Shown: positions 25,216 to 58,862 of the stretch, piece after piece
Layout: every line of letters begins with the position of its first letter
Position numbering within the stretch: position 1 is the stretch's first letter
Assembly: GCA_019873725.1 (NCBI GenBank)
Contig: JAIOAS010000004.1
Span: 1-58,862 of the forward strand
DNA length: 58,862 bases
Direction: 5' to 3'
Source of the DNA: Chloroflexota bacterium
GTDB taxonomy: Bacteria > Chloroflexota > Anaerolineae > B4-G1 > SLSP01
Made by a program: the position numbers and the translations under genes
Notes under the pieces: model-generated
What the model was told of the DNA's origin: nothing
The model's database searches: none
The model's input: only the letters and a program-made list of their open reading frames with translations

Positions 25216-25267
25216 AGAAGATACAGGATATTGGCAATTGAAGGAAACGGCGGGCGAGGGACCAGCG

Positions 25268-28997: not shown

Positions 28998-29042
28998 CCG
29001 GCCGTGCGCCGCTCACGACTCTGGTTGTGGGGATTGGGCCAT

Positions 29043-31684: not shown

Positions 31685-31829
31685 CAATCATTGTCCCCCT
31701 GTCCATTGATTCTCTGTCTTTTTCTGGCTGTAGCGAGTATCTGGTCTGGCGCCAGTCTCGCCCCTGGGGTCTGGGGCGTTAGCCCCAGCCGCGCGAAAAT
31801 TGAATTTTGAGGCATCGAAGGAACATTGA

Positions 31830-34715
31830 ATGGGCTTCTGTTCACACTGTGAAACCTATCTCCCGCCAGAGACAGCCGCCTGCCCGGTGTGTGGCGTTTC
31901 TGCACCCGCACCGGCAGCGCTTGTACCCGCCTGGGCCGTACCCTTGCCCTCATCGCTATCCGGTGCGCCGGTGGCATTCGCTGGGGGGATACTGGCGGCC
32001 AGCCACACGGAGCGCGCTGCCGTCCTGGAATGGCGCGCTATCGCAAACGGGCACAGGGGGTGGCACTGCACCTTCGACAACACCTTGATCACCGGCATGG
32101 TCGCCACCGGAGAACGCCTCCTGGTCAGCCTCACCAGCACAGACCCGCTGCACGGACAGGGCGCGCTCGTGGCCCTGGATGCGGCAGGGCACGAGGTCTG
32201 GCGCTGGACGACAGAAATACAGCACATCTCTGCCCCCGTTATCGCCGGAGATGCCGTCTACGTCACTGCCGGCGCCGGTCATCTGGTCGTCGTGGATATC
32301 ACCACCGGCGCGGAACAAGGGCGCTGGGCGTTGCCCGTTTCCGTGTCGCTCGCCGCGCCCGCCGTCGCCGGGGAAACGCTCTACCTGCCGTGCCGCGGGC
32401 CGCACCTGCTGGCCGTCACCCTCTCCGGCGCGCTGCGCTGGCGCTTCGACGCTCCGCTGCCGGAAAACGCCTGGCTGCACCACACGCCAGCGCTTTGGCA
32501 GAATACCGTCTTTGCCGCCAGCAGCGCCGGGCTGATCTTCGCGTTGCAGGCGGATAGCGGCATAGTGCGCTGGCAGGTCCCGGTCGGCCCGCTGGACCGG
32601 CCCCTGAGTCCGCCCGTCACAGACGGCGAACGCCTCTACGTGGGCGCGCGGGATGGTCTGCACGCCCTGACCCTGAACGGCGAACCGCTCTGGCATTTCC
32701 CCACCGCACAGAAAATCACCGCTGCACCGGTCGTCGTGGGTGGTGTGGTGTATGCCGCGTGTTGGGACCGCTGCCTCTACGCGCTGGATGCCGTCACGGG
32801 CCGGAAATTGTGGCGCTATCCGGTGGAACGGCACATTGAAGTCGCGCCGCTCATTTTCTCGGCCGATACCGATCAGGCCTACGCCGTGATCGCCGATGCG
32901 GGCGGCACGCTCACCGCGCTCATCCGCCCTCGCAGCGCTGCCGAACAGGAGGCCGCCGGGCAATGGCAAGAAGCCGCGTGCGCCTACGCCGCGCTGGATC
33001 AACCCGCGCGTGGAGCCGCGCTCCTGGAAGCGCACGGCCAACCGTACCAGGCCGCGCAATTGTGGGAAGTCGCCGATGAACCGGAGCGGGCAGCCATACA
33101 GTACGAAATAGCCGGACATTGGGAGCAAGCCGCCGGTCTGTGGGCCAGGCTAGGACAACCCTTGCGCCAGGCGGAAGCGTTGCAACAACACGCGCGTTCC
33201 CTGGCAGAGGGGAAGACGCCATTGGACATCCAGGCCGCGCTCTGGGAGCAGATCGCCGCCCTCTACGCCGAACACAATCAGCCCACATTGGCAGAACACT
33301 GCCGTCGCGAGGTCGCCCGCTGCCGTCAGCAACCGGTCATCGCCTTGACCATTGAACACAGCGGATTGGTGCTGGGTGAATGGTCGTTGGTGCACTTCAT
33401 CGTGCACAACGCCGGGTTTGGTCCGGCGCGCAATCTGGTCATCCACACCGACAAGGCGTGCTTCGTCGGACAGGTGACGCAGACGCAGCGCATCACCACC
33501 TTGAAGGCGGGGGAGCAAGAAGTGCGCACGCTCGACCTCAAGCCGTTGGAAGCCGGCAGTGCGCCATTGCGAGTAACGGTGGAGTTCACCGATCAGTCCG
33601 GTAAGCCGATGCCCTGGGAGAAGACTATCCACCTGCCTGTGGCGCGGGAAGCTGCCGCGCGCGCAACGCAGACACATACGCAGGTCTTCCGCGCCACGCG
33701 CTTTGTGGACCTGGAAATCCGCATCTTCAAACGCGCGGAGGCGGGCTATCCCGTCGAAATCACGCTGGCCGGGCAGCAGCACTTCGCCGGTATCATTGCC
33801 GCAGACCTGGCCCACTGGATTCCCTCCGCCGATACCACAGTCGATGGTCGCGCCTTGTTCGCTGCGCTCACCGCCGACCCGGCACTGGCGAATGCCTGGG
33901 CGCGCTGTCGCGGGCAGGCTCCACAGCGGCGGGTCCGCCTGTGGCTCGATGTGGCTGCGCCAGAACTGCACAGTATTCCGTGGGAATGTCTATGTGCAGA
34001 CACGCTCCCCCTCGCGGCAGACGCGGCCACGCCTTTCTCACGCTACCTGCCCACGCAGGACGAATGGGGCGCTGTCATCACCACCCGTCCGGTGCGCGTC
34101 CTGGCCGCTATCGCCAATCCCACCGACCTGGCGAAGTACAATCTGGCCAGGCTGGATGTGGAGCAGGAACAGGCACTTGTCACAAGTGCGTTGAGCGGCG
34201 TAGATAACTTTCAGGTGGACTTCCTCCCTGTGCCGGTGACGTTGGCGCGCCTGGAAGAACGCTTGCGTGCCGGGTATCATCTGCTGCACCTGGTCGGTCA
34301 CGGCGTCTACAATCCCCGCCAACACACAACGGCTTTGTGCTTGCAGGGTAAAGCCGGCCAAACGCAGCTTGTCACCGACGCAGAGTTCGGTGCAATGTTA
34401 ACCCGCCAGGGGATACGCCCACGTTTGGTCGTGCTGGCCGCCTGTCACGGCGCGACGCGCTCCACCGCCGATGCGTGGCGCGGGATAGCGCCCGCACTGG
34501 TGCAGGCCGGCGTCCCGGCTGTCGTGGCGATGCAGGGCGCAGTCGCAATACCGACAGCGCAGGCGTTCACCGCCGCATTCTACCGCGCGCTGGCCGAGCA
34601 CGGCGCGGTCGACCTGGCCCTCAACCAGGCCCGCAGCCTGCTCATCAGCCAGGGCTGCTGCGATGTTGCCCTGCCGGTGCTTCTGATGCGACTGCAGGAT
34701 GGGCAGATCGTGTGA
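31830..34715 (+). CDS. Multidomain CHAT (caspase-HetF) protease: zinc ribbon, PQQ-like beta-propeller, TPR-like helices, Ig/CARDB-like domain, CHAT
   Basis: CSHCETYLPPETAACPVCG is the zinc ribbon. Repeated G.VY..a..G.L.AL....G...W blades form the propeller. The CHAT dyad context is HLLHLVGHG and LVVLAACHGA. Confidence 0.8.
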   Translation: MGFCSHCETYLPPETAACPVCGVSAPAPAALVPAWAVPLPSSLSGAPVAFAGGILAASHTERAAVLEWRAIANGHRGWHCTFDNTLITGMVATGERLLVSLTSTDPLHGQGALVALDAAGHEVWRWTTEIQHISAPVIAGDAVYVTAGAGHLVVVDITTGAEQGRWALPVSVSLAAPAVAGETLYLPCRGPHLLAVTLSGALRWRFDAPLPENAWLHHTPALWQNTVFAASSAGLIFALQADSGIVRWQVPVGPLDRPLSPPVTDGERLYVGARDGLHALTLNGEPLWHFPTAQKITAAPVVVGGVVYAACWDRCLYALDAVTGRKLWRYPVERHIEVAPLIFSADTDQAYAVIADAGGTLTALIRPRSAAEQEAAGQWQEAACAYAALDQPARGAALLEAHGQPYQAAQLWEVADEPERAAIQYEIAGHWEQAAGLWARLGQPLRQAEALQQHARSLAEGKTPLDIQAALWEQIAALYAEHNQPTLAEHCRREVARCRQQPVIALTIEHSGLVLGEWSLVHFIVHNAGFGPARNLVIHTDKACFVGQVTQTQRITTLKAGEQEVRTLDLKPLEAGSAPLRVTVEFTDQSGKPMPWEKTIHLPVAREAAARATQTHTQVFRATRFVDLEIRIFKRAEAGYPVEITLAGQQHFAGIIAADLAHWIPSADTTVDGRALFAALTADPALANAWARCRGQAPQRRVRLWLDVAAPELHSIPWECLCADTLPLAADAATPFSRYLPTQDEWGAVITTRPVRVLAAIANPTDLAKYNLARLDVEQEQALVTSALSGVDNFQVDFLPVPVTLARLEERLRAGYHLLHLVGHGVYNPRQHTTALCLQGKAGQTQLVTDAEFGAMLTRQGIRPRLVVLAACHGATRSTADAWRGIAPALVQAGVPAVVAMQGAVAIPTAQAFTAAFYRALAEHGAVDLALNQARSLLISQGCCDVALPVLLMRLQDGQIV

Positions 34716-39658: not shown

Positions 39659-41971
39659 ATGACAGAATTGATGGGTCAGGCCATTGGAGCGTACCGGCTC
39701 ATCGCCAAGTTGGGCGAAGGCGGGATGGCTGAAGTCTACAAGGCGTACCAACCTCGCCTCGAACGCGAGGTCGCACTCAAGTTCATCCGCCCTGAACTTG
39801 CCGCCGATGCGGAGTTTCGGGGGCGTTTCGAGCACGAGGCGCAAGCGATAGCCCGCCTGAGCCACCCCAACATAGTTCACGTCTATGACTTTGGCGAGGA
39901 AGGCACTCGCTATTACCTGGTGATGGAATACGTCCCTGGCCAAACCCTTAAGGGACGCCTGGAATCACTGCGCGCTGCCGGGAAGACGATGGACTGGGAC
40001 GAGGCCTGCCGCATCATCAACCAGATCGCCGCGGCATTGGACTATGCTCATCAGCAGGGCATCATCCATCGTGACGTGAAGCCGGCTAACATTATGCTGA
40101 CCCCCGACGGGCGCGCGTTGCTCAATGACTTCGGCATCGCCAAGATGCTCGGTACGTCACAGGCGCTGACACAGACCGGCGGCACCATCGGCACGCCCGC
40201 CTATATGTCGCCGGAACAAATTCGCGGCGACAAAGAACAGCTTGGCCCGACCAGCGATCTCTATTCACTTGGCATCGTGTTGTACGAAATGTTGACCGGG
40301 CGCGTACCTTTCGTTGCAGACACGCCACTGGCGGTGTTGTACAAACACTTGCACGACCCCATTCCACTGCCACGCACCCTTGCGCCGACCTTGCCCGAAG
40401 CCACTGAACGGGTGCTCCTCAAGGCGTTGGCCAAAGACCCCACAGATCGCTATCCCGATGGACAAAGCTTGACTCAGGCTCTGCAAGCCAGCTTTTCCAC
40501 GCCTACACTACCCCTACCGACTCCCCGACGGACACGAACGCGCCCGGTCTGGCTCATTCCGGTTATCATTGTTGCAATGTTGGCGACGGTCATTTACGGT
40601 GTTTTGGCGTGGCGCACCGAACAGTCGCGCTTCTTACAGCCGCAACAACCAGCGACGCAGACTATGGCTGTCTCTGATGCGACAGCCACCTTCACCGCTG
40701 TTGCAGCTACCGCGATCCCCACTGCGACTTCCACGACGACGGCCATGTTCCCCACTCCCACCGCCACACCACGGCCACAGGCCACCCCCTGGGGGACAAC
40801 CGCTACTTCTGCAACATTGATCACTGTGGTGCAGCAGTTCGCGGCCCCCGGTTACCGTGCCGAAGGTCTCACGTGGGATGGTACGCATCTGTGGGTTGCG
40901 GATAATTCGGGGACGATCTTCCAGGTAGATGCTGCCGGTCGAACACTCGGCGCTTTCGCAGCGCCAGAAGTGACCCCGCAGGGCTTGGTCTGGGATGGCA
41001 CAAGTTTCTGGGTCTTCACCACCAATTATGGCCGCATTTACCAGTTCCAAATCGAGGGTACAGAGACGCGCACGTTGGGCTCCTTTGAGACCCCGGCGCG
41101 CGTTTTTGGTGGCGACATCAGCCAGGAGCTGGCCTGGGATGGCACGCATTTGTGGTACGCCAACCAGTTCAACGTCTACCAGTTGGATACGTCCGGCAAC
41201 ACCCTCTGCACCTTCGCCTTCGCGCAGAATGTGGCCGGCCTGGAATGGGACGGCGAACGTCTTTGGCTAGCGTACGGAGGGTGGCCGGCGCTTTCAACCC
41301 TCGCGGTGGTCGATGCGACAGGAAACGTGATGATGACCTTTTCTGCTCCGGTTCACGGGATTCTGGCGCTGGCGTGGGGTGACAATACGTTGTGGGCATT
41401 GGGGCGCGAGTTACACGGGACTGCGATCCAAATTTACCAACTGGACGTATCCCGTGCATATGCAACCCTCACTCAGATTTCTGATTCATCCTGGCAAGCC
41501 GAGGCGCAAGCCGTGCGTAGGGCGTCTACCTTGCGCGCTTACACTGCCACGCCAAGCGATACCAAAGCCCCGCACGTGGCCGAAGCCGGGACAGTATTTC
41601 TGGTGGTTGATTTGGGGCTACGTGGCTCAGAAAAGGGCGTACTCCTGAACCTGGAGGATGTACGAGTGACGGATAACCAGGGGCGCGCTTATCCCGTGAT
41701 GGGAATGGCCTTGTCGTCGGACGACGGTTTTGCCCTTGGTGAAACCAGCGGCATGATCCATATGCTAAACCTTGATCCACCCGCGCTGGACATCCAATTC
41801 ACGATTGTGCAAAGCGGAGTGTGGGGATCCGAGACCATTGAGGGAAACATGCTGGTCAATGCTCCCAGCGGTGCGTGGCCGGTGGTGCAACTTGTCTTTG
41901 TCGTGCCTGAAGATGCTGGCGGATTGCAGCTAGCTGGTCTTGGAACGGGGACCGATTTGGTCATTCCTTGA
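39659..41971 (+). CDS. Transmembrane Ser/Thr protein kinase with extracellular beta-propeller-like repeats
   Basis: Kinase motifs GEGGMAEVY, HRDVKPAN, DFG and TPAYMSPE. One TM segment (VWLIPVIIVAMLATVIYGVLAW). Repeated W(D/E)GTHLW blades. Confidence 0.9.
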   Translation: MTELMGQAIGAYRLIAKLGEGGMAEVYKAYQPRLEREVALKFIRPELAADAEFRGRFEHEAQAIARLSHPNIVHVYDFGEEGTRYYLVMEYVPGQTLKGRLESLRAAGKTMDWDEACRIINQIAAALDYAHQQGIIHRDVKPANIMLTPDGRALLNDFGIAKMLGTSQALTQTGGTIGTPAYMSPEQIRGDKEQLGPTSDLYSLGIVLYEMLTGRVPFVADTPLAVLYKHLHDPIPLPRTLAPTLPEATERVLLKALAKDPTDRYPDGQSLTQALQASFSTPTLPLPTPRRTRTRPVWLIPVIIVAMLATVIYGVLAWRTEQSRFLQPQQPATQTMAVSDATATFTAVAATAIPTATSTTTAMFPTPTATPRPQATPWGTTATSATLITVVQQFAAPGYRAEGLTWDGTHLWVADNSGTIFQVDAAGRTLGAFAAPEVTPQGLVWDGTSFWVFTTNYGRIYQFQIEGTETRTLGSFETPARVFGGDISQELAWDGTHLWYANQFNVYQLDTSGNTLCTFAFAQNVAGLEWDGERLWLAYGGWPALSTLAVVDATGNVMMTFSAPVHGILALAWGDNTLWALGRELHGTAIQIYQLDVSRAYATLTQISDSSWQAEAQAVRRASTLRAYTATPSDTKAPHVAEAGTVFLVVDLGLRGSEKGVLLNLEDVRVTDNQGRAYPVMGMALSSDDGFALGETSGMIHMLNLDPPALDIQFTIVQSGVWGSETIEGNMLVNAPSGAWPVVQLVFVVPEDAGGLQLAGLGTGTDLVIP

Positions 41972-42604: not shown

Positions 42605-43483
42605 GTGGCTGAGCCGTTTTGGGAGACCAACTTGATCTACCGCGTGGTCATTGGCAGCCAGGCGTATGGCCTGGCGAACGCTGACAGTGACCTGGACACC
42701 TGCGGCGTCTGTATCCCGCCGCGCTGGTATCTCTTGGGGCTGACGCCGTTCGAGCAACACGTGGCGCACGGGGCGGAGCGCGACACGGTGGTGTATGCGC
42801 TGGTCAAGTTCGCGCGGCTGGCGTTGGAGTGTAACCCGAACATCATCGAAGCGCTATACGTCGAACCACGCCATATCTTGCACTGTGACAGCTATGGCGA
42901 ACGCTTGCGCGCGCAGCGGCATCTGTTCCTCACCCGCAAGGCCGGGCAAACCTTTTCCGGCTATGCGATCAGCCAGTTGCGGCGCCTGGAACGGCATCAT
43001 CGTTGGCTGGAGAATCCGCCGGATCACCAACCCACCCAGGAAGAATACGGGGGACGCAACATTGACGGGCGCTACAAGTTCCCAGATCACGATGCGGAGA
43101 AGGCGTATCGCAGTGCGCTCAAGCATTGGAATCACTACCAGGCGTGGCGGCGAGAACGCAACCCGGCGCGGGCTGAACTGGAAGCACGCTATGGCTACGA
43201 CACCAAGCACGCGATGCACTTGTTGCGGTTGCTACGCATGGGAATGGAAATTCTGGAAACCGGGGAAGTCCACGTCTATCGCCCTGACCGTGAGTGGTTG
43301 TTAGCCGTGCGGAATGGGCTGTTGCAGTACGAGGAACTGTTGGCGCTTGCGGCGGAGTACGAGGCGCGGCTGGCAACATTGGAGGCGACTTCGACACTGC
43401 CGGAAACGCCGGATGTGGCGCAGGTGGAAGAGTTGGTGATGGCGTTGCAAACGGAGTGGTTAGGGGCAAGGGGGGAATTGTAA
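42605..43483 (+). CDS. Nucleotidyltransferase (PF10127/RlaP-like)
   Basis: VIGSQAYGLANADSDLDTCGV is the pol-beta-type GS..D.D motif typical of this family. GTG start. Confidence 0.7.
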   Translation: MAEPFWETNLIYRVVIGSQAYGLANADSDLDTCGVCIPPRWYLLGLTPFEQHVAHGAERDTVVYALVKFARLALECNPNIIEALYVEPRHILHCDSYGERLRAQRHLFLTRKAGQTFSGYAISQLRRLERHHRWLENPPDHQPTQEEYGGRNIDGRYKFPDHDAEKAYRSALKHWNHYQAWRRERNPARAELEARYGYDTKHAMHLLRLLRMGMEILETGEVHVYRPDREWLLAVRNGLLQYEELLALAAEYEARLATLEATSTLPETPDVAQVEELVMALQTEWLGARGEL

Positions 43484-48731: not shown

Positions 48732-51700
48732 ATGAACAACACAAACACCGCCAACAACACCTTCTCAATGACCCTCACCCCTGACGGCGCATCCTTGCAC
48801 GCCTACGCCTGGGCCTTGCCCCACGGCTGGCGGGCATGGTCGCCGCACGCGCTGCGTATCCTGCGTAAGCCCTACCGCCACGCGCGGACGCACCTGGAAC
48901 TCACCGATGACGTGGTAAGCAGCCTGTACGACCCGCAAGGCGCGCGCAACATGGCTGCCGCCTTTGGCCTGGCCAACGTGCCGGAATTGGGCCTTGTCCA
49001 GGTCTACGGTGGGCTGGCAATGGGCAAGACCCAGGAACAGGCCGTGCAAGCTGCGGCCCTGAACTCGGCGCGCCTGGTTGCGGCGCTGCAAGGGCGCTTC
49101 CGGCAGTCGCGCTTTACCTTGCTATCCGCCGATGAAGCCTCGGCCTTGTACAATCACTTGTGGGCTTGTCGCCACACCGCTTCCCTGATTGGCCAAATGG
49201 TGCCGCGCATCGCACCCGGAATGGGATCCAGCCACGGCATCAACCAACTGGTCACCACCGACGCGCAAGAGCAGCTCGAAGTCATCGCCGCCGCGCTGGC
49301 CGGGGAACCGTTCGCCGTCTTGACCCTGGCGCATCCCTTACACGCGCTGGACATCCGGCGGATGTTGACTGACACTGCCCAAGCCCTGAGCTACTTCGCC
49401 TCCAAGGTGAAACAGAGCGAGTCGGCTAACGTGAGTGCGGTGCTGCCCCTGTTCCTCAACCCGGTGGCGGTCTTCAGCGAGCAGACGCATCGTGCGACGC
49501 AGGTGACGCGGGCCGATCAACGCCTGCGCACCGAGCAGAACGCCCATCGCCTGGCCGCCGGGCAGTCCGATGCGGTCAGCGCCTACCGCCGTGAAACTGC
49601 GAGCCGCGAGGCGCACCAGGGACAGGAGAACACCGGCTACTACGAGAAACAGCACGTGCGTGAAGATGTGCGCGAACACGAGGAAGCGCAGGTCAACCTG
49701 GAACGCGACTATGCCGACAACTACAGCCTGTCCCGGTCGTACAGCGGCAGCGAGGCCGGCGTGATGCAGACCCAGGGCGCACGCGATGCCACCCAGCAGG
49801 GCAACCGCCAGCAGCACACCGACGAGACCGGCCAGTTGCACAGCGTCGAGAGCATCGATGAGCGCGTCAGCGGCGTGCGCTCCGGGGCAGGCAGCCGGTC
49901 TAGCGTGGAAGCCTTCAGCGTCGGAGAACGCTACACCGGTGGCAGCAGCCGGACCTGGGAAGGGGGCTACAACGAACAGACCGAGCGGTCGTTCAGCGGC
50001 GCGGGCAACGAACACACCCAAGGCGGCTACCAACAGGCCGAAATCGGCGTCAGCAACGAGGCGAGCAGCGAGGGCTTTGTGCGCAACACCGAAAGCGATG
50101 TACACGGCGATGGGGCGCAGATGCAGACCTACGCTGAACAAGGCGTCGAAGGCAGCCTTTCCCCGCGCATCTTCGGCATCGGCGGCGGCGAGACGATGGA
50201 AGCCGGGGAGCGGGGCAATATGTACGAGTCCCGCGATCACGAATTGGCCAATGTCACCGGTAGCCTGGACACCGACCGCGGCAGCCAGCAAAGCGCGCTC
50301 ACGGGCGGAATCCAACAGGCCAACAACGCCTACAAGCGCAGCGGCAACCAGCAAGAGGCGCTGGGCCAGACCTGGCAGGGTAACGAGACGGTGCAGACCG
50401 CGGAGTGGCGCAGCGGCGGCGGGGTGCGGTCGAGTCAGATGACCTATGGCTACAGCGAAGCCTACCAGGACGCCAGCCATACCGACCGCGCAGCGCAGCG
50501 CGCCTGGGAGAGCGCCGTGGATCAGGACGCCGCCTGGCAGCAGGCCACCCGCGACGGCTATCAAGGGGTGGAACACTTCGCCCGCACCTTTGGCGGCAGC
50601 TATGCCGAGACCGGGCAGCGCAGCGGGCATCTCTCGCAGCAGGATACCATCATCGCCGACCGCGCGCTACAACGCGAGTCCGACCGGGTGGTCAACGGCT
50701 TCCGCAGCGAGACGTTTGACGGCTACCGCAATTCACAAGAGCAGACCAGCGGGGCTGAAGCCCGGCAAGAGGCGATGATCGGTGAGGGGCGCGAGTACGT
50801 GCAAGCCCAGGCCGCCGAACAGGTCGGGGCGACGCTGGCGAACGTGGGGCGTACCCAGGTGACGACACGGGGCGTGATGGGGCCGTCCGGCGGTTCCCTT
50901 GTAGCGGGCCTGGCCTTCGCCCGGCAGATCGTGGACACGCAGCGTGACTTGGTGGCGCAGTTGCTCGACCAGCAGGTGCGCCGCTTGAGCGCCGGGCTGG
51001 ACACCGGGCTGTTCCTGACGCAGGTGACGCTGCTGGCCCCCGACGAGGCCCGGTTAGAACGCCTGGCTGCCGCGTCCATTGCGGCGATGCGCGAGGAGAA
51101 CGTCGTCGTGCCCGTCGCCGCGCGCGCAGGGGACGAGACGCTGTGGCAACGGGCGATCACGTTGGACTTCGATGCCCGCACGGAAGACGCTGGGCCATTT
51201 GATACCTTGCGCCACGCCCAAACCCTGACGGCCAACGAATTAGCGGCGCTCGTGCATCCAATCCGCATCTCGGACGGCACGATCTCGGCCTCGCTGGATG
51301 CCTGGCCGGAAGACCTGTCGCACCGTCGCACGCAAGGGGAAATCGCGCTAGGTCTGGTGCTGGACGTCAATCTGCAGCCGGATCCCAATAATGTCCACCG
51401 CTTCCGCGCTGACGAACTGATGCACACCGTCATCGTTGGGGATTCTGGCTCCGGCAAATCCAACTCCGCGCTGTGGTTTGTCTCGCAAGTGGTGAATACA
51501 GTGCGACAAGATGAACACGGTATTCCGATCCCTGCCCCCATCATCGGGCCGGTACGGACCGGCGCGGCAGGTGGGACGCCGCGCATCGGGGTGACGGTCT
51601 TCGATCCAACGGGGGAATGGCGTAAGTTGGGTAAATTGGTTCCGGCCCGCGACTTTCAGTTCTACTCGTTGACCGATCCAGGGGAATATCCATTGCAGTT

Positions 51701-52700
51701 CAACCCGTTACGCATCCCCAGCCCGTACCTGCACCCGGCGAAGTGGGCGGCGGCATTTGCCAAACACTGGCTGCTGGCCTATCCCGCCGGGGCGACCGGT
51801 TTCCACCAGCTCAAGGGCGCGGTGCTGGACGCTTACCGCGCGGCGGGCGTCATCGAGGAGGACGGCAGGGTGTACCTGGAACGTTCGGCGAACTTGTGTA
51901 TGAAGGACTTACACACCGCCCTGGTCGCACGCTACAAGGTACTCAGCGAAGAACGCAGCGACACCATCACGGCGGGCGTAGTCAAGCGCATCATCGACAA
52001 GGTGGAAGAGTTCTTGCCGAAGGGGGTGTACTGTAGCGCCTTCGGGCAACCAGGGGGCACGACGGTCGCCGAGTGGACAGCCCCGGACAAGGCGACGGTC
52101 ATCACGGGCAAATTCGGCGATGACGGGCCGCTGAAGCAGTTCATCATTGGCCTGATGGTGTCCGGCATCTACCAACATGCAGACGAACGCTATGAGCATT
52201 ACTTACGTCAAGGGCAACCCATTCCGCAGCATCTCCTGTTCGTCGAAGAAGCGCACGTGGTGATGCGCTCGGACGCCTCGACCCAAACGGAGATCGCCCA
52301 GGCTATCGGCGAGGACGCGGGGCTGTGGAACAACATCACCGACCGGGGCCGTAAGTTGGGGCTGTACCTGTGGACATCGGCGCAGCATTGGGAGCCGCTG
52401 CCGTCTGGTGTCGTCACGTCCAGTAGCATTGCCATTATTCAGAAGGTGAGCACGGTGAAGGACGCCGAAATCGCGGTGTCGAAGGCCGGGCGCTTGCCGG
52501 GGAAGACCAGCCTTGACGACTACTCCAAGTGGACGCTGAGTGTGCTCAATATGCCCACGGGGGTCGGCTATGTGCGGCGTACACGCAAGACGTTGAGCCA
52601 GGAAAGCGAAATGGAGATTTTCCCGGTACAATTTGTGGACATTTCGGGGATCGTCCCGCCTGCGGATGCGGAGTTGGAGTGGATTGTGGGAGGAGGGTAA
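48732..52700 (+). CDS. Giant HerA/FtsK-superfamily (DUF87-like) P-loop ATPase with novel N-terminal domain and ~450-aa low-complexity insert
   Basis: AAGGAG RBS. Walker A is HTVIVGDSGSGKSNS, followed by VFDPTGEW. Walker B is LLFVEEAH, and RGRKLGLYLWTSAQ follows. Residues ~250-700 are Q/E/G/S/R/A/T-rich and almost free of hydrophobic runs. Confidence 0.75.
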   Translation: MNNTNTANNTFSMTLTPDGASLHAYAWALPHGWRAWSPHALRILRKPYRHARTHLELTDDVVSSLYDPQGARNMAAAFGLANVPELGLVQVYGGLAMGKTQEQAVQAAALNSARLVAALQGRFRQSRFTLLSADEASALYNHLWACRHTASLIGQMVPRIAPGMGSSHGINQLVTTDAQEQLEVIAAALAGEPFAVLTLAHPLHALDIRRMLTDTAQALSYFASKVKQSESANVSAVLPLFLNPVAVFSEQTHRATQVTRADQRLRTEQNAHRLAAGQSDAVSAYRRETASREAHQGQENTGYYEKQHVREDVREHEEAQVNLERDYADNYSLSRSYSGSEAGVMQTQGARDATQQGNRQQHTDETGQLHSVESIDERVSGVRSGAGSRSSVEAFSVGERYTGGSSRTWEGGYNEQTERSFSGAGNEHTQGGYQQAEIGVSNEASSEGFVRNTESDVHGDGAQMQTYAEQGVEGSLSPRIFGIGGGETMEAGERGNMYESRDHELANVTGSLDTDRGSQQSALTGGIQQANNAYKRSGNQQEALGQTWQGNETVQTAEWRSGGGVRSSQMTYGYSEAYQDASHTDRAAQRAWESAVDQDAAWQQATRDGYQGVEHFARTFGGSYAETGQRSGHLSQQDTIIADRALQRESDRVVNGFRSETFDGYRNSQEQTSGAEARQEAMIGEGREYVQAQAAEQVGATLANVGRTQVTTRGVMGPSGGSLVAGLAFARQIVDTQRDLVAQLLDQQVRRLSAGLDTGLFLTQVTLLAPDEARLERLAAASIAAMREENVVVPVAARAGDETLWQRAITLDFDARTEDAGPFDTLRHAQTLTANELAALVHPIRISDGTISASLDAWPEDLSHRRTQGEIALGLVLDVNLQPDPNNVHRFRADELMHTVIVGDSGSGKSNSALWFVSQVVNTVRQDEHGIPIPAPIIGPVRTGAAGGTPRIGVTVFDPTGEWRKLGKLVPARDFQFYSLTDPGEYPLQFNPLRIPSPYLHPAKWAAAFAKHWLLAYPAGATGFHQLKGAVLDAYRAAGVIEEDGRVYLERSANLCMKDLHTALVARYKVLSEERSDTITAGVVKRIIDKVEEFLPKGVYCSAFGQPGGTTVAEWTAPDKATVITGKFGDDGPLKQFIIGLMVSGIYQHADERYEHYLRQGQPIPQHLLFVEEAHVVMRSDASTQTEIAQAIGEDAGLWNNITDRGRKLGLYLWTSAQHWEPLPSGVVTSSSIAIIQKVSTVKDAEIAVSKAGRLPGKTSLDDYSKWTLSVLNMPTGVGYVRRTRKTLSQESEMEIFPVQFVDISGIVPPADAELEWIVGGG

Positions 52701-52717
52701 ACGGATTTTTCGCCAGT

Positions 52718-52740
52718 GTTGCTGATCATCATTCAGCAAC
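52718..52740. terminator. Bidirectional terminator-like hairpin between convergent genes
   Basis: gttgctga tcatcat tcagcaac forms an 8-bp stem in the 54-nt convergent gap. Confidence 0.45.
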
Positions 52741-52754
52741 GCAGGCGACGACAA

Positions 52755-54155
52755 TTACACTGTGCTGAGATCAGAACCACCCTCGGTAGCAGGCGTGTCA
52801 GCATTGAGCGCCTGCTCCAACAGCGCGAACACCGGTTCCAAACCCTCAATACCGGCAGCGCGGATGAGTTCCAGGTCACGGAAGGCATCACGCACAACGC
52901 CGGGGGCAGAGGTGATGTCCAGCGCGTGGCGATACTCAGTCAACGCAGGGGCAAGGAGATCATCACGTTGGGCAACATCAATCCAGCGTGGATCAAGTAT
53001 GGCCTGGCAAGTTAGTGCGGTAGCCAACGCATAACTCGGGATATAAAGCATGGGCGCTTCTTCCAATTTCAATTTACATCGAGTAATTGATCGAGTAAAC
53101 GCTTCTTCAGCGAGTGAGAAAGACTGTAGATACAGAAATGCGACACCTAGCATCAATGCGGCTTGGAAATCAGTCTCTGGGAACTCCATCTGCAATGCTT
53201 GGGTACAATAGTCTCGAGCCTGAGCGGGCTCTCCAATCCTTAGCATTGTCTTTCCTAACTGAAGTAATTGATAACTCTCATTCCAACGACCACCGATCTC
53301 GTGAGCGATTCCTAGACCTTCACGATGACATTCTATTGCTTCTTGCCAGCGCCCCAAATCTTGATAGGTCTGCCCTAAATAGCCAAGGTTCACAGCTTGA
53401 TTTACGCGCAGATCAATTTCGCGGGCTATTTTTAGTGCTCGTGCGTAACTTTCCACAGCGCGTTCAGGTTGATCGAGAGCGTTGTATATATGGCCGAGAC
53501 GAGTCAGATTGACGGACTCTTCCCAATCATCGTTGTTTTGCTGTGCAGTAGCGAGAGACTTTTCCACTATCATAGCAGCAAGCTCGAATTGTCCAAACGC
53601 AAGATAAAACCAGCTCAGACTTCCTGCTCGAGTCATCTTAAGTGTTGTGTCACCCAGCGCATATGTAAGTTTTAGCGAATCTTCGAAACATTGCATAGCG
53701 CGCTGGGTTTGGCCCTGATCTCGATAAGCAAATCCGAGTTGATAAAGTGCTTCACACGCATTACGGCGGTCTTTGTTATCTTGCGCAAGCTTGACTGTTA
53801 GTTCAAGATATTCAATCGCTTGCTCCGTTTGTCCTAAAACGCGCGACACTCGCCCCAAACCAACTAAGTTGGCAATTTGCATCTCCGGCGTCATCGGATG
53901 ACCAACGAGACGTTTTCTTAATTCGGATAACCACTGGCAATGTCCCCAAAGGTATAAGTAGCGGTAGTCAATGCACTCAAGCACTCTAGCGACCGCATCA
54001 AAGTCACCTGCCTGAATTCGATGGCTAATTTCGTTCAATTGCGGTTCCAGATCTTTTAGCGATATCCAGGCACTTTCTGGCTTACGGATGCTGACATAAT
54101 ATTCCGCTGCTCGCAGTTCCACGTTGCGACGATTGTAGGAGGTGACGTTATCCAT
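52755..54155 (-). CDS. TPR-repeat protein, STAND sensor-like cassette 1
   Basis: Starts MDNVTSYNRRNVELRAAEYYVSIRKP. Has about 10 TPR-like repeats and the tail DLELIRAAGIEGLEPVFALLEQAL. The ATG overlaps the cassette 2 stop (ATGGATAA). Confidence 0.85.
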   Translation of the reverse strand: MDNVTSYNRRNVELRAAEYYVSIRKPESAWISLKDLEPQLNEISHRIQAGDFDAVARVLECIDYRYLYLWGHCQWLSELRKRLVGHPMTPEMQIANLVGLGRVSRVLGQTEQAIEYLELTVKLAQDNKDRRNACEALYQLGFAYRDQGQTQRAMQCFEDSLKLTYALGDTTLKMTRAGSLSWFYLAFGQFELAAMIVEKSLATAQQNNDDWEESVNLTRLGHIYNALDQPERAVESYARALKIAREIDLRVNQAVNLGYLGQTYQDLGRWQEAIECHREGLGIAHEIGGRWNESYQLLQLGKTMLRIGEPAQARDYCTQALQMEFPETDFQAALMLGVAFLYLQSFSLAEEAFTRSITRCKLKLEEAPMLYIPSYALATALTCQAILDPRWIDVAQRDDLLAPALTEYRHALDITSAPGVVRDAFRDLELIRAAGIEGLEPVFALLEQALNADTPATEGGSDLSTV

Positions 54156-55500
54156 TCAATGCCCCTTCCAGAAGTTCAAACACTGGTTCCAGACCTTCAA
54201 CACCGGCGGCACGGATCAGTTCAAGGTCACGCAGCGCCTCACGCACTACGCCTAGTGCAGTAGTAATATCGAGAGCGCGACGGTATTCGGTCAAAGTAGG
54301 GAGAAGGAGAACCGAACTTTGTGTAGCAGCAGACCAATGTGAGTCACAAACGGCTTGACCGATTCGCGCAGCCGCAAGTGTATATTGCGCATCATACAAG
54401 TCTGTGGTAAGCTGTAATCGCCTCTGGCAATAATCTATCGCACGTTCGAATTGTTCAATTGCTGGTTGGTGTTGACAGAGACGTGCTATCCCCAAAGCTA
54501 GTACAGCCTGGTAATTGGTTTCGGTAACATTGAAATCGCACGCTTTTTCAAAACAGTGTTCCGCTGTGGCAAATTCACCAATGCTTAACCATATTCTCCC
54601 ACATTCCCACCAACGGTAACTTGCTATACGAGGATCATTGAGTACCTCGGCCAGAGCCAACGCCTCACGAACTAGAACGAGGGCTTGCTCGGAACGTTGC
54701 TGGATTGCATAGAGTGACCCCAAAAAACCCAACCAGACGCATATTCGCCGCCGATCTTGTAGGGATCGAGCAATCTGCAAAGCTATTTCACAACAATGGA
54801 GCGCATCCTCTAGGCGTCCCAATCTGCAGTAGGTAATGCCTAGACGGCCAGTTTGTACACCTTCTTCCAGACGATTATCAATGCGCCGTGCTATTGCTAG
54901 AGACTGTTGGTAACATTCCACCGCTGCATCAAATCGCCCAATACTGTTGTAGGCATGCCCCAAGTTACCAAGAATTTCGACTTCAGTGTCAGGAGTATTG
55001 TTTGCCTGGGCGAGTTGCAAGGCGGCTTGATCCATCGCGATAGCCCGATTGATCTGCCCAAGAGTACGATATGCCCGGCCTAGACGCAGTAGCTGAACAC
55101 TCTCCATCTGGTGATCGCCTATTTGACGTGCCAGTGCCAGCGCCTGGTGGTAGAAGTCGAGCGATATGTCAACTTGGTTGCGTGAGTAATATGCCAGACC
55201 CAGACTGCTGTAATTCGTGAGTCGCAGATAGGGATCACTCAAGTGCCCGCTGAGTTGTTGGCGCAATGTTGTCAGAAGTTCCACGTGCCCCCAACGATAC
55301 AAATATGCATAATCAATACTATCCAACAAGCGTGCAGCCACTTCGTAATCTATAGCCCGCACACGATGCACAAGTTCAGTCAATTGGGGCATCAAATCTT
55401 CAGTGGTCTGCCACTCACTTGGCGGTTTACGGATACTGGCATAGTAGTCCGCTGCGCGTAATTCAGCTTCGCGCTGAGTATAATTGGCTCGACTATTCAC
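54148..55500 (-). CDS. TPR-repeat protein, STAND sensor-like cassette 2
   Basis: By alignment with the paralogs, the start is GTG 55500 (MNSRANYTQREAELRAADYYASIRKP), with GGAG upstream. The tail is DLELIRAAGVEGLEPVFELLEGALNG. The start overlaps the NTPase stop. Confidence 0.85.
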   Translation of the reverse strand: MNSRANYTQREAELRAADYYASIRKPPSEWQTTEDLMPQLTELVHRVRAIDYEVAARLLDSIDYAYLYRWGHVELLTTLRQQLSGHLSDPYLRLTNYSSLGLAYYSRNQVDISLDFYHQALALARQIGDHQMESVQLLRLGRAYRTLGQINRAIAMDQAALQLAQANNTPDTEVEILGNLGHAYNSIGRFDAAVECYQQSLAIARRIDNRLEEGVQTGRLGITYCRLGRLEDALHCCEIALQIARSLQDRRRICVWLGFLGSLYAIQQRSEQALVLVREALALAEVLNDPRIASYRWWECGRIWLSIGEFATAEHCFEKACDFNVTETNYQAVLALGIARLCQHQPAIEQFERAIDYCQRRLQLTTDLYDAQYTLAAARIGQAVCDSHWSAATQSSVLLLPTLTEYRRALDITTALGVVREALRDLELIRAAGVEGLEPVFELLEGALNG

Positions 55501-57307
55501 CTTGCTCCTGTTCTCCTTCTGGAATCCGCCGGTACACATACTCGCGATCCATCGGGTGCAAACTATACTCCCCCGTCGCCCGATTGAAGGTCACGAAGTA
55601 GCTGTTGACCAAACGCCGCAGGCTGGCGCGCACATCCAACGCCGGGAACCAGGGTTGCAGCAGAAAGGCAATCGCCGTAGCATCGACAGGACGGTTGAAG
55701 ACCGCCAACGCTTCCATCACGCGACGTTCTTCTTCTCCCAAACGTTCATACCCGGCAGCGATCAAGCCTTCCATCACTTGTTCGCCAAACACGGTTTCAT
55801 CGGCCAATAGCTCAGTCAACGTCAACGTCGGGTCCCGATCCAGGATGCCGGCCAGGACTTCCAGGGCGCGCGGGATGCCCTGCGTGAGCTGCGCAGCGCG
55901 ACGCAGATCAGCTTCTGGCGCGTCACGCAATCCCAGGCGACCGTCGGGGTCGAAATCGCGCAGCAAAGCCATAGCATCATCTTCCGGCAGCCCTTCGCGT
56001 AGAGGGATGTGCCGCGCGCTTCGTACTGCCGCTGGCGCTACGGAGACTTGCTCCCGCGAGGTCGTAATCAATCGCGTCCCACCCGGTTGCAGCATACAGC
56101 GTTCTACGAAGAGCCGCAGTCCTTCCTCTTGAATGGCGTTGTCGTCATCCAACACATCTTCCAGGTTATCGAGCAAAATGACGTACACACCTTCTTGCAG
56201 TGTTTCCAGCAAATACTCCACCTTGGCGGCCAATGGCGTGTCGCGATCAGCCCACCGCGCGGCCAGGCGACTCGCTACGGGGTCGCCCAACATGCGGCCC
56301 ACATCGGTGTAGAGGCGTTCCAGGCTCAGTCCCGTGCTTCGCGCACTCAGGTAGAGTATCCCGTCCACCACTTGCGCCGCTGTCTTGCCCTGTGCCCCGG
56401 ATGCCGTTTCCACGGGTGCGTTTGTCAATATCGTTAGCTCGTCCGCCAGTTCGAGTAACCGGCGCTGGTTGGCGTCGCCATATTCCGTTTGTTCACTCAA
56501 AACGTGCAACAACAGCACCAGCGCATTCTCTGCGTGACCGGAAATGTCAGCCGTGTGGGCAAATAAGAAGGCAATCGTCCGCTGAATACGAGCAAAGACG
56601 CTATCGGCTTCGGGAATTTGGCTCTGCCAGGGAGCCAACCGCGCATCCACGAAGATAGCACGCAAGGCCGCGTCACTGTCGAATGCCCCACATGTCTGCA
56701 AAGCCGCACGTAGGCGACTGTAAAGCGCAGGGGGAATCCCAGCCGGTCGTTCACCAGGCACTGCTTCGGTAACGGGCGCGATCATCTCTTCCAGATCGGC
56801 CAGCACGTAACTGACCAACGCCGTCTTTCCCATACCTCCACGCCCTACCACACTGACCAAACGCACCGTGCCGTCGGTCAGATGCTCCCGCAATGCCAGG
56901 GCTTCGCGCACGCGATCCTTGAAAGTGTGCGTGACGTCCAGAGGGCGGACATTGACCACACGCTGTCGTTCGCGCCGCTCGCGGCGGTCGGCGTCATCCC
57001 AATCGCGCTTGGCACGCCACCAGGCCATATCCGCATCGAGCTGCGCCTGCGACCAGGCGGCAATGGCGGCATCCCAGGCCACATCAGGACGAATGGTTTT
57101 GCCGGCGTTCACCAATTCATAGACGCGATCTTCCTGGACAATGCGTTTGAGCAGCTCGCGTGCCTTGTGGCCTTGCTCTTGAGCCGGCAGTGCGTCGTAA
57201 TCCAGGCCTAAGTCAAAGCAGAGCGTACTCAAGTCATCGGCGGTCATCTGTGCAGCCAGTACCTGGCGCAGCGGGCTGAGATGCTGGGTCAAACTTGGTG
57301 TGGTCAT
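55493..57307 (-). CDS. NB-ARC/STAND NTPase lacking its own repeat sensor, with N-terminal EAD/death-like adaptor
   Basis: Has P-loop VVGRGGMGKTALV, Walker B VYVILLDNLED, GGTRLITTSRE, a GLPLAL-like QGIPRALEV and a winged-helix end YSLHPMDREYVYRRI. The N-terminus is LRQVLAAQMTADDLSTLCFDLGLDYDALP...KARELLKRI. Confidence 0.85.
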   Translation of the reverse strand: MTTPSLTQHLSPLRQVLAAQMTADDLSTLCFDLGLDYDALPAQEQGHKARELLKRIVQEDRVYELVNAGKTIRPDVAWDAAIAAWSQAQLDADMAWWRAKRDWDDADRRERRERQRVVNVRPLDVTHTFKDRVREALALREHLTDGTVRLVSVVGRGGMGKTALVSYVLADLEEMIAPVTEAVPGERPAGIPPALYSRLRAALQTCGAFDSDAALRAIFVDARLAPWQSQIPEADSVFARIQRTIAFLFAHTADISGHAENALVLLLHVLSEQTEYGDANQRRLLELADELTILTNAPVETASGAQGKTAAQVVDGILYLSARSTGLSLERLYTDVGRMLGDPVASRLAARWADRDTPLAAKVEYLLETLQEGVYVILLDNLEDVLDDDNAIQEEGLRLFVERCMLQPGGTRLITTSREQVSVAPAAVRSARHIPLREGLPEDDAMALLRDFDPDGRLGLRDAPEADLRRAAQLTQGIPRALEVLAGILDRDPTLTLTELLADETVFGEQVMEGLIAAGYERLGEEERRVMEALAVFNRPVDATAIAFLLQPWFPALDVRASLRRLVNSYFVTFNRATGEYSLHPMDREYVYRRIPEGEQEQGE

Positions 57308-58719
57308 ACGGTATTCTCCTGTAAGCTTGTAGGCGACGGCAAAGCGTCACCCGGTAAGGGTTGCCAATCAGCTATGGCCTGTTCTAACAAGACAAATGCC
57401 GGTTCTAGGCCGTCGATGCCGGCAGCACGGATGAGTTCCAGGTCACAAATAACATCTTTTACTACACCAGGTGCAGAACACATCTTTATTGCTTTTCGAT
57501 ACTCTTTTAATGATGGTATAAGTAGTTCGTGACGATTACATTGTGTTTTCCACTTTTCAGTGGCGACTACAAAACCCGCCAAAGCAGTGGCCAGTGAATA
57601 ACGGGGACGGTATAAGGTCACGGCATTGCTTAACAATGACTTGCTCTGAGTGATTGCCTCGGCAAATACATTTTTAGCGTTTGGATCAGACTGATGTAAC
57701 ATCGTGATGCCTAACACTAAAGTCGCGTTGTACTGGATATCTGGGATATCAGACACTATGGCTGCGGTGCAGCAGCTAAAGGCTTCAGAGATAGCACCAA
57801 TAGATAGCAAGGCTCTCCCCAGCATCGTTAATGCGTAGCTTACCGCACGTTCTTCGTGAATTCCTCGAGCGATTTCTAAAGAAACTTCATGACAGCGAAT
57901 AGCCTGTCTGAAATCTCCTAGGCTCTGATGTGCTATACCAATACAATTATGCAATATACACTCACTACGACGGTTGCCTATTTTTTGATTTATCTTCATG
58001 GCTTCTTCATACAACTCGATCGCTTCCTCAAATTGCCCCAGAGCTTGATAGATCAGTCCCAAGCCATGTAGATTCAATACAGTATTACCAGAATCTTCCA
58101 TTTCCCTTGCAATTGCCAAGCCATACCTATAAAACTTAGTTGCTTCTCCTATCTTCCCCAGTGTAAAATTAACAGAGCCAAGGTTTCCATATTGAGATGA
58201 TTCTAATTGCTGATCGCCAATAACCCGTGAAATAGCAAGGGATTTCTTGTATGATAGCATTGCTAGTTTTATTTGCCCAAGGATTTGATAAGTCTTACCA
58301 AGAGAGTTATGCAAATGAGCCTCAAGATAGGGTACGTTGATTCCTTGCGCGATACTCAGTGCTTGTGTATATAACTGACTGGCATGTTCTATATGACCCA
58401 TAGCATAATGAACGAATCCCAGATTGCTTAAGTTCATAGAACGTTGACCAGGGTCTATCAAGTATTTCTGGAGTTGCTGACGCATTTGTGCTAAGCGCTC
58501 ATAATATCCCCAGGTGGAGAGGTAATTTCGATCAACCGATTCAAGAATTTCAAACGCTTCTTTGATGTTTTGGCTGCATAATCTATGTTCAAACTCTGCT
58601 AGTTGTGGGGTCAAGTCATCAATTGTCTTCCACTCATCTTTCGGCTTGCGGATACTGGCATAATACTGCGCGGCACGCAGTTCCAGGGATCGGCAGGTGT
58701 AGGAGCTAACGTTGTTCAT
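57304..58719 (-). CDS. TPR-repeat protein, STAND sensor-like cassette 3 (very low GC)
   Basis: Starts MNNVSSYTCRSLELRAAQYYASIRKP. Has TPR repeats and the tail DLELIRAAGIDGLEPAFVLLEQAI. Its stop overlaps the NTPase ATG (ATGA). Confidence 0.85.
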   Translation of the reverse strand: MNNVSSYTCRSLELRAAQYYASIRKPKDEWKTIDDLTPQLAEFEHRLCSQNIKEAFEILESVDRNYLSTWGYYERLAQMRQQLQKYLIDPGQRSMNLSNLGFVHYAMGHIEHASQLYTQALSIAQGINVPYLEAHLHNSLGKTYQILGQIKLAMLSYKKSLAISRVIGDQQLESSQYGNLGSVNFTLGKIGEATKFYRYGLAIAREMEDSGNTVLNLHGLGLIYQALGQFEEAIELYEEAMKINQKIGNRRSECILHNCIGIAHQSLGDFRQAIRCHEVSLEIARGIHEERAVSYALTMLGRALLSIGAISEAFSCCTAAIVSDIPDIQYNATLVLGITMLHQSDPNAKNVFAEAITQSKSLLSNAVTLYRPRYSLATALAGFVVATEKWKTQCNRHELLIPSLKEYRKAIKMCSAPGVVKDVICDLELIRAAGIDGLEPAFVLLEQAIADWQPLPGDALPSPTSLQENTV

Positions 58720-58862
58720 GCAATGCTCCTTCCAGGAGTTCAAAGGCCGGTTGAAGTGCGCCCATAAAACTGGACACCAAAACGAAGTTTCTTAGTGAAT
58801 ATGCTCGGCAGCATCCGTCGCGTTCGCATAAAATTGTGCCTCAAATTCCACTGGGGTCAAGT

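Follow-up and report, generated by a model that had tools for sequence, protein, structure and literature searches.

STAND (signal transduction ATPases that have numerous domains) and NLR (nucleotide-binding leucine-rich repeat) receptors are central to the innate immunity of animals, plants, fungi and bacteria. To our knowledge, they have almost always been described as single chains in which the sensor is covalently linked to the switch. How, then, should a locus be read where one NTPase switch and several repeat proteins are encoded by separate genes? Such a locus is found in contig JAIOAS010000004.1 (assembly GCA_019873725.1), from a Chloroflexota bacterium of the class Anaerolineae; the whole stretch analyzed, 58,862 nucleotides, is referred to here as the window. 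A first-pass annotation, made from the sequence alone, had described an NB-ARC NTPase gene accompanied by three tetratricopeptide repeat (TPR) genes, which we call TPR-A, TPR-B and TPR-C or, collectively, cassettes, and had interpreted them as one molecular switch with exchangeable sensor subunits. We found that the split is real and conserved. We also consider it probable that the locus constitutes an NLR/Apaf-1-like STAND system divided between the winged helix and the arm, where a nucleotide-binding oligomerization domain (NOD) hub would be served in trans by alternative arm-plus-sensor subunits.

The four genes form one translationally coupled operon. Their open reading frames (ORFs) lie on the same strand in the order TPR-A, NTPase, TPR-B and TPR-C (Table 1), and the coordinates and overlaps of 4-8 nt given in the first-pass annotation were verified on the ORFs and the junction sequences. 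The overlap is of 4 nt between TPR-A and NTPase (ATGA), and of 8 nt both between NTPase and TPR-B (GTGAATAG) and between TPR-B and TPR-C (ATGGATAA), and a Shine-Dalgarno (SD) sequence is located 6-8 nt 5' of every start. For TPR-B, the GTG at 55500, preceded by AGAAGGAGAACAGGAG, was favored over an upstream ATG at 55539 because the other 24 members of an alignment of 25 cassettes begin there. The SD sequence of a cassette (GGAAGGAG or GGAAGGGG) is written in the L-L-E-G-A-L tail codons of the cassette before it. Upstream of TPR-A only a tail scar of an earlier cassette is left, the frame being closed beyond it in the three-frame translation, and the junction between this scar and TPR-A (-14 nt) belongs to the same class as intact cassette junctions in the related loci L003, L006 and L109. 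Inside the operon, one weak terminator-like site was detected against 5.6 expected from shuffled sequences, denoting that no internal terminators are present. Also, an identical four-gene arrangement was found in an independent assembly, L001.

The NTPase displays both traits that define the AP-ATPase/NB-ARC STANDs, that is, the Walker motifs and a tripartite NOD with an MHD-type histidine, while a repeat sensor in the same polypeptide, which is typical of the clade and not strictly defining, is absent. Walker A, Walker B, sensor-I TSR, GxP (GIP) and the MHD-like LHP are intact. The NB-ARC assignment, initially made without database searches, was sustained by the Pfam profile (30.7 bits against a gathering score of 23.5), whose match covers residues 139-175 only, corresponding to the P-loop. 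Along the AlphaFold2 (AF2) model (pLDDT 80.9), whose elements stand in the expected order, EAD7 is followed by a long linker helix (78-112), by beta-1 with the P-loop helix and by a six-helix insert; then come the remainder of the nucleotide-binding domain (NBD), a helical domain and a winged helix reaching residue ~594, in agreement with the proposal that the protein ends right after this last module. The best Foldseek matches of the model were Apaf-1 1z6t (3e-7), the NB-ARC of tomato NRC1/NRC2, CED-4, the archaeal STAND-TPR 6mfv and MalT; a search of the PDB by sequence gave no match with the NTPase, so this kinship is seen by fold comparison only.

Two domains of the NTPase had escaped the first-pass annotation. 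One is an N-terminal EAD7, modelled as a helical bundle (residues 6-72). The other is a bDLD1 death-like domain looped into the NBD: since NTPase residues 1-178 and 314-597 align contiguously with fused relatives in BLAST, residues ~179-313 constitute an insertion, for which AF2 predicted six helices at 193-296 and a pLDDT below 50 at 179-185 and 298-311. We found no description of a bDLD1 inserted within an NBD in the open-access literature. Judging from its sequence, the NTPase is a NOD with an intact nucleotide switch and two non-enzymatic adaptor domains, and contains no enzyme.

Each TPR gene, in turn, encodes a complete arm of four constant head helices followed by a variable solenoid and a constant C-terminal cap. 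The three proteins match TPR_12 at 1e-29 to 5e-31 (Pfam), with TPR_1 also matched, as expected from the TPR assignment of the first-pass annotation. Cassette residues ~7-450 align end to end with the complete C-terminal arm of fused relatives, the match starting 1-5 residues past the end of the NTPase match and reaching the C-terminus of the fused protein; therefore the break sits in the ~7-residue linker that joins the winged helix to the arm. The fused-protein consensus at this junction, ..HPLDREYAYRxLPxxxxxxxYxxRNLELRAA, places the head right after the NOD, which agrees with what had been said of the N-terminal motif shared by the three cassettes. The AF2 model of TPR-C (pLDDT 93.6, pTM 0.90) is one continuous solenoid with four head helices (9-81), regular TPR units of ~40 residues (90-~306) and capping helices up to residue 452, and resembles in Foldseek the peptide-binding TPRs of LGN/Pins type and the TPR arm of the STAND 6mfv.

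Conservation along the cassettes is uneven, far more so than chance would give. In the head (residues 1-40) the mean pairwise identity is 0.62-0.69, in the tail (401-440) it is 0.66-0.80, and it drops to 0.26-0.36 in the TPR body, where scaffold residues (L, G, Y, G, A, AL, IA) persist amid highly variable ones. Fused relatives share these constant ends and have bodies that diverge less (0.41-0.53), and the shared C-terminal tail already noticed in the first pass, DLELIRAAG..GLEP.F.LLE, occurs in cassettes and fused relatives alike. Head and tail therefore characterize the whole family and did not arise as adaptations to the split.

The extreme C-terminus of the cassettes tracks operon position and not body type. 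Internal cassettes end in ..LLEGALNE or ..LLEGALNG, the last cassette of an array in ..NADTPATEGGSDLSTV, and the cassette before the NTPase in ..ADWQPLPGDALPSPTSLQE[N/D]TV; TPR-A carries such a pre-NTPase tail extension, ..ADWQPLPGDALPSPTSLQENTV. Both terminal and pre-NTPase cassettes end in ..[ST/DN]-T-V-COOH (52755-52766 and 57304-57315 on the minus strand of the window; also in L003, L010 and L012). Homology between the two endings was rejected, as their DNA differs (ACAGTGTAA versus ACCGTATGA). We take them to resemble a class-I PDZ-binding C-terminus, and this may be a coincidence.

Is the split a property of this contig or of a lineage? We collected 14 clusters of NTPase orthologues from NCBI, JGI, ENA and Logan assemblies (73-94% identical, 599-609 aa), and all of them are NTPase-only and carry EAD7 and bDLD1. 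The relatives are all labelled Anaerolineae, Thermoflexales or Chloroflexota, and no close relative was found in phage and plasmid collections. The neighborhood survey suggested in the first pass revealed separate TPR-only genes at every relative with enough contig. Syntenic loci contain 1 to 7 cassettes: one plus a decayed upstream remnant in L002, the 73% outlier; three plus the tail scar in the window; four in L012; five in L010/L005; and seven in L003 (3 upstream, 4 downstream), with at least three in L106 (a 76% orthologue) and at least four in L109. Independent assemblies even show one identical NTPase protein (P0001) with 3 or with 2 cassettes downstream. Since the loci are 80-90% identical in both flanks, they occupy syntenic positions in related populations. 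An initial interpretation of 2-3 paralogous modules per genome was withdrawn on account of this synteny, the sequences coming probably from co-binned related strains.

For the NTPase, the ratio of nonsynonymous to synonymous divergence (dN/dS) was 0.07-0.11, and orthologous cassettes gave 0.13-0.23; with values well below 1, all of them are functional genes under purifying selection. The distance from the NTPase stop to the start of the next cassette is -8, -4, +15, +10 or +26 nt, which covers all three relative frames with an intact stop and start in each case, and a conserved fusion by recoding (frameshift or readthrough) is thus excluded. These data also bear on the conditions under which the first-pass annotation would have been abandoned, namely that the boundaries were frameshift or assembly artefacts of a single fused gene or that relatives lacked a conserved split, and the finding withstood both; they bear as well on a possible decay into pseudogenes. 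Metagenome assemblies do generate such errors, as illustrated by an apparent TPR-NTPase fusion in L015 and by some broken cassettes in L107, a contig of 2x coverage. The L015 fusion was rejected, since it consists of N bases spanning a gap in the scaffold. Independent samples and assemblers (JGI, ENA, NCBI and Logan) give identical split boundaries, and the 14 clusters, from independent metagenomes, are NTPase-only; together with purifying selection and junctions in every frame, this leaves the artefact or decay explanation effectively refuted.

Splits with a single cassette occur in other subclades of the family as well. In L022 (5557-7944), a DUF4062-NTPase is followed by a single TPR gene and a kinase-EAD7-kinase protein is encoded directly upstream; in L023 (9466-11889) and L024, an EAD7-NTPase precedes a TPR-ADP-ribosylglycohydrolase gene; and in L025 the gene after a DUF4062-NTPase, truncated by the contig end, has its start within the NTPase gene. 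The split units of L023 and L024 sit downstream of helicase, DUF87 (HerA-like) and DUF8166 genes. Cassette-like proteins with N-terminal extensions were considered as other split points and rejected, as they are truncated fused STANDs.

The number and identity of cassettes differ between closely related strains. Among 25 cassettes from eight non-redundant loci, most are 30-47% identical and a few orthologous groups reach 74-97%; when proteins from databases are included, the 57 complete stand-alone cassettes represent at least 28 types that share less than 60% identity. The comparison of the window with its closest locus, L011, is illustrative: TPR-B has a 91%-identical orthologue in the same slot, and TPR-B, the TPR-C tail and the downstream flank match at 86-87%, yet the TPR-C body (~52990-54074) has no nucleotide homologue there. 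Additionally, cassette L009_2 is a mosaic, with ~90% DNA identity to the internal cassettes L003_5 and L012_3 until nt ~1500 and 92-100% identity to terminal cassettes past this point, and its arrangement recurs in three independent assemblies. For the same pairs of loci, the dS of orthologous cassettes is often below that of the NTPase (0.27 versus 0.66; 0.22 versus 0.94). Because of the mosaic, the replacement of the TPR-C body and the low cassette dS, we conclude from these sequence comparisons that cassette bodies have been swapped or deleted by recombination in the constant ends; the position-specific tails, independent of body type, and the tail scar upstream of TPR-A give further support. 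Inversion or shufflon-type switching was rejected, as the cassettes are all co-oriented and inverted repeats are absent, and no recombinase was found at the locus. In this sense, the exchangeability proposed in the first pass holds at the genetic level (variable number, replacement, mosaic breakpoints), while docking as a sensor would be a further, conjectural step.

The split STAND belongs with the STAND (AP-ATPase) conflict systems coupled to effector-associated domains (EADs). Kaur, Burroughs, Iyer and Aravind (eLife 2020/2021) defined EAD7 and bDLD1 (= EAD3) as adaptors predicted to link core components to effectors by homotypic contacts, the partners being encoded next door or elsewhere in the genome, and described the NTPase as typically coupled to repeats in one polypeptide. 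Here the core regulatory component does carry EADs, both of them kept in the orthologues. In common with EAD-coupled STANDs, the system has an AP-ATPase/NB-ARC NOD, a TPR sensing or scaffolding module and EADs in place of an enzyme, and both are found in filamentous Chloroflexota, consistent with the preference of EAD-coupled systems for bacteria of multicellular or filamentous habit. It differs from them in that the repeats are never fused and form 1 to 7 separate paralogous genes, in that bDLD1 is inside the NBD and not at a terminus, and in that neither the window nor the locus flanks yielded an adjacent effector gene bearing the same EAD. The sole precedent of a separation in that work is an FxSxx-type system with TPRs on a vWA protein and the AP-ATPase in a separate gene (Kaur et al., 2020). 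More recently, a split-TPR form of the antiviral STAND Avs1 was mentioned in one line (Evans et al., Nat Commun 2026, PMC13601566), and a systematic STAND survey (2026) refers to "split proteins" in its methods only. The Avs1 variant is likewise a defence STAND with a TPR sensor encoded apart from the NTPase, but Avs proteins carry an N-terminal effector enzyme, whereas the NTPase described here starts with the non-enzymatic EAD7 and a linker helix. No PADLOC model, Avs models included, matches the NTPase, the cassettes match generic TPR models only, and no direct homology comparison with Avs1 was made. The first-pass annotation had not recognized a described system. This stands for the multi-cassette array, as the open-access literature gave us no account of alternative TPR cassettes that recombine and are arrayed around a gene for a NOD alone; it does not stand for the class, given that EAD7 and bDLD1 place the locus among EAD-coupled STANDs and that a split-TPR Avs1 has been mentioned once.

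Also close are fused NOD-TPR paralogues of the same Anaerolineae/Thermoflexales family (for example P0015, P0018 and P0023; 885-1050 aa). They share a NOD core ~70% identical, the head right after the winged helix, the C-terminal tail and a TPR_12-type body, and many of them start with EAD7. Unlike the split NTPase, they are single chains without the bDLD1 insert and have EAD7, DUF4062 or trypsin at the N-terminus, and unlike the split cassettes their TPR bodies diverge less.

What would such a receptor signal to? A HMMER search with the bDLD1 insert retrieved 1069 representative proteins, whose best matches are fused to Peptidase_C14, CHAT, TIR, trypsin plus metallophosphoesterase, Roc-COR and other STANDs, and in Chloroflexota EAD7 is fused to Mrr-nuclease-FGE, HD-CE, TIR-AAA_35, nSTAND1-WD40 and uncharacterized domains. 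No second EAD7 or bDLD1 was detected in the window or the locus flanks with local hidden Markov models (E <= 1), nor in the conflict-type proteins of the window with Pfam (E <= 10). A pattern scan with the EAD7 alignment of the carrier metagenome-assembled genomes (MAGs), none of them a complete genome, returned the NTPases themselves only; according to Kaur and colleagues, partners may lie anywhere in the genome. The PQQ-CHAT protein of the window was rejected as a partner, as its likeness to the bDLD1-bearing P0204 is limited to the propeller and a helical part and it has no bDLD1.

In the mechanism that we favor, the constant head would dock on the NOD in trans, mimicking the intramolecular NOD-arm contact of closed, ADP-bound fused STANDs; this arm concept comes from MalT, where arm contacts stabilize the closed NOD (PMC4381067). 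Several alternative sensor subunits would share out the pool of NOD. Once the variable TPR groove of any one cassette holds its cognate ligand, a protein or peptide, the NOD may be freed, which would then undergo nucleotide exchange and oligomerization, and the clustered EAD7 and bDLD1 could recruit, by homotypic contacts, effectors with the same adaptors encoded elsewhere in the genome. The split would let the recognition repertoire grow, shrink or swap without duplicating or disturbing the signalling module. We consider that the split STAND most likely serves immunity or another biological conflict.

Several points weigh against this proposal. That TPR proteins dock on the NTPase, and that they act as alternative sensors, are both inferences. 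Being equally conserved in fused relatives, the constant ends alone do not indicate adaptation to working in trans, and given how common fused paralogues are in this lineage, the split may be a neutral fission. With several cassettes per NOD, the relevant sensor would sit on a fraction of the NODs only. Also, no cognate EAD7/bDLD1 effector was found in the 58.8-kb window, the flanks of related loci or the carrier MAGs, PADLOC offers no model for the NTPase, and all the sequences are metagenome-assembled and come from uncultured Anaerolineae.

Other explanations account for part of the data. Sensor-less STANDs tend to auto-activity, and the TPR proteins could be trans-acting inhibitors or buffers of a sensor-less NOD, the trigger being their depletion or displacement, for example by a pathogen protease or a drop in translation, in a guard-type logic. 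The same architecture would be expected under this explanation as under a library of sensors; the head is the conserved NOD-proximal arm, and the cassettes, coupled in translation to the NTPase gene on either side of it, are in stoichiometric excess. We regard it as unlikely nonetheless, as an inhibitor would have no need for bodies at 26-36% identity with a kept scaffold and variable surface positions, for the 28 or more types under purifying selection, or for a rapid turnover of cassette type between strains. It is likewise improbable that the locus is a housekeeping or developmental module in which TPR paralogues scaffold endogenous partners of a regulator like the MalT, AfsR and GutR-type STANDs. 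Bacterial STANDs do include transcription regulators, the cassettes give weak matches to the AfsR, NsdA and MalT TPR models, and the locus is chromosomal and syntenic, on no recognizable mobile element. But no DNA-binding domain was found in the NTPase by Pfam, its sole extra domains being EAD7 and the death-like bDLD1, which are described only in conflict systems and, in related proteins, are joined to caspase, CHAT, TIR, trypsin and nuclease domains. Presence/absence and type polymorphism among near-identical strains is typical of immunity loci and not of core regulators, and the neighborhood is rich in conflict genes, with a diversity-generating retroelement (DGR) diversifying kinase-FGE proteins and a CHAT protein.

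The recombining ends raise a further alternative, where the cassettes are a silent reservoir like pilS or the orphan cassettes of Rhs and contact-dependent inhibition (CDI) systems, recombination fuses one of them to the NTPase and the fused form alone is active. Zhang and colleagues reportedly described, in 2012, polymorphic toxin systems (Rhs/CDI) with standalone or orphan cassettes, which constitute a precedent. There is a resemblance: in both cases a constant junction flanks variable cassettes beside a constant gene and recombination in the junction leads to strain diversity, and conserved recombining junctions are present here (constant head and tail, the L009_2 breakpoint, the replacement of the TPR-C body). 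In Rhs/CDI, however, the orphans are C-terminal toxin tips used after recombination onto the main gene, whereas the cassettes described here are independently translated and selected, and what varies is the sensor and not the toxin. Silent cassettes would lack translation signals of their own, while each of these is full length, with its start and SD sequence and the purifying selection noted above, and no fused expression copy appears among the 14 orthologue clusters. Cassettes upstream of the NTPase could never become its C-terminus by simple replacement, and the locus offers neither inverted repeats nor a recombinase to a switching mechanism. A silent reservoir is hence very unlikely.

Coming back to the sensor subunits that we favor, a functional analogy can be drawn with NAIP-NLRC4 inflammasomes and the sensor-helper (NRC) networks of plants, where several paralogous sensors also feed one signalling NOD. 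NAIP-NLRC4 and NRC sensors are paralogous, often tandemly encoded, and have different specificities. Each of them is a complete NLR with its own NOD, unlike the NOD-less sensors described here, which would complete one NOD in trans. We put forward only tentatively a wider picture, in which the locus may be a modular, germline-encoded receptor repertoire. One NOD hub, with death-fold and EAD adaptors only, would be completed in trans by whichever of many interchangeable arm-plus-TPR subunits has its ligand bound, and the sensor genes would travel from strain to strain as cassettes recombining at constant ends that also hold the ribosome-binding site of the next gene. Splitting a single NLR, instead of duplicating whole ones, might have given bacteria their equivalent of NAIP/NLRC4 or of sensor-helper NLR networks. 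If true, this would be a second route to a larger recognition repertoire, beside whole-gene duplication and hypermutation by DGRs, and it would mean that the NOD-arm interface of STANDs can serve as an intermolecular plug-in socket. The halves could then be mixed and matched without engineering, giving a handle on how arm and sensor control the NOD, and may suggest how to design programmable sensors in which detectors are plugged into one signalling hub. In addition, this death-like domain, which loops out of the NBD, is relevant to the presentation of bacterial death-fold adaptors upon oligomerization.

Table 1. Features of the split STAND operon and of the retroelement in the window (positions in the 58,862-nt stretch; residues are those of the NTPase).
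Feature	Position	Strand	Description or evidence
TPR-A	57304..58719	-	471-aa stand-alone arm-plus-sensor cassette; stop overlaps NTPase ATG
NTPase	55493..57307	-	604 aa; EAD7, linker helix, NBD with bDLD1 insert, HD1 (helical domain 1), winged helix; no repeat domain
TPR-B	54148..55500	-	450-aa cassette; GTG start; internal-type tail (..LLEGALNG, stop)
TPR-C	52755..54155	-	466-aa cassette; terminal-type tail (..NADTPATEGGSDLSTV, stop)
EAD7 adaptor domain, residues 13-74	57086..57271	-	Pfam PF19960, E = 6.5e-12, above gathering score
Walker A GRGGMGKT, residues 155-162	56822..56845	-	motif
Insertion of ~135 aa, residues 179-313, between P-loop helix and strand beta-2	56369..56773	-	alignment to fused relatives
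bDLD1 death-like domain, residues 190-285, between disordered linkers	56453-56740	-	Pfam PF20689, E = 6e-12, above gathering score
Walker B VILLDN, residues 376-381	56165..56182	-	motif
MHD-like LHP, residues 583-585, last winged-helix helix	55553..55561	-	motif and model; protein ends 19 residues on
Shine-Dalgarno GGAAGGAG of TPR-A	58726..58733	-	encoded by L-E-G-A codons of tail scar
Shine-Dalgarno GGAAGGGG of TPR-C	54162..54169	-	encoded by conserved LLEGAL tail codons of TPR-B
Scar of earlier cassette	58706..58762	-	18-codon tail remnant (GALQPAFELLEGALHEQR, stop); overlaps TPR-A start by 14 nt
DGR reverse transcriptase	27547-28632	+	RVT_1, 8.6e-20
DGR template repeat (TR)	~29042-29168		
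DGR variable repeat 1 (VR1)	27286-27412		3' end of kinase-FGE-sulfatase gene 25238-27418
DGR variable repeat 2 (VR2)	31552-31678		3' end of kinase-FGE-sulfatase gene 29360-31684

The surroundings of the operon are heterogeneous. Its G+C content (52001-58000) is 52-55%, against 57-66% in most of the window and 63-65% in the adjacent gene for a 1322-aa protein; a horizontal origin or the codon composition of TPRs could explain the low value. On the upstream side, 70 nt away and on the same strand, lies the 3' end of an unrelated gene (..LTPVEFEAQFYANATDAAEHIH, stop; 58793-58862, minus strand) cut by the window edge. The upstream genes of L003 are divergent instead, and the upstream flank of the window is thus unlike that of its relatives. 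On the other side, the 1322-aa protein (48732-52700, plus strand) is convergent with TPR-C, 54 nt apart. It has an N-terminal domain, a long low-complexity middle rich in Ser, Gly, Glu and Gln, and a C-terminal HerA/FtsK-like P-loop; NCBIfam ser_rich_anae_1 is matched at 4e-108 but below its cut-off, and PADLOC HerA models are matched weakly. This gene, which is divided into two ORFs in L006-L009, is 90-93% conserved beside every close orthologous locus. Its adjacency reflects synteny and is therefore not evidence of functional linkage.

Farther away, ~21 kb from the split STAND, the window contains the DGR (25238-31696, plus strand), whose VRs depart from the TR almost exclusively where the latter has an adenine. 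A 2024 paper in PNAS reportedly deals with kinase-FGS sensors diversified by DGRs in multicellular bacteria, and this retroelement is of that known kind. The window also encodes, on the plus strand, further conflict-type proteins, namely one composed of a zinc ribbon, a PQQ beta-propeller and a caspase-like CHAT domain (31830-34715), a Ser/Thr kinase with a possible beta-propeller (39659-41971) and an RlaP-family nucleotidyltransferase (42605-43483), the three of them without EAD7 or bDLD1. Transposition genes are represented by a DDE_5 transposase (3554-4963, plus strand) and by an IS21-type pair (14732-17205, minus strand) with an IstB-like ATPase (14732-15907) and an rve/Mu-type transposase (15508-17205). 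A DnaE polymerase gene is located at 20371-23637, and the window is therefore chromosomal.

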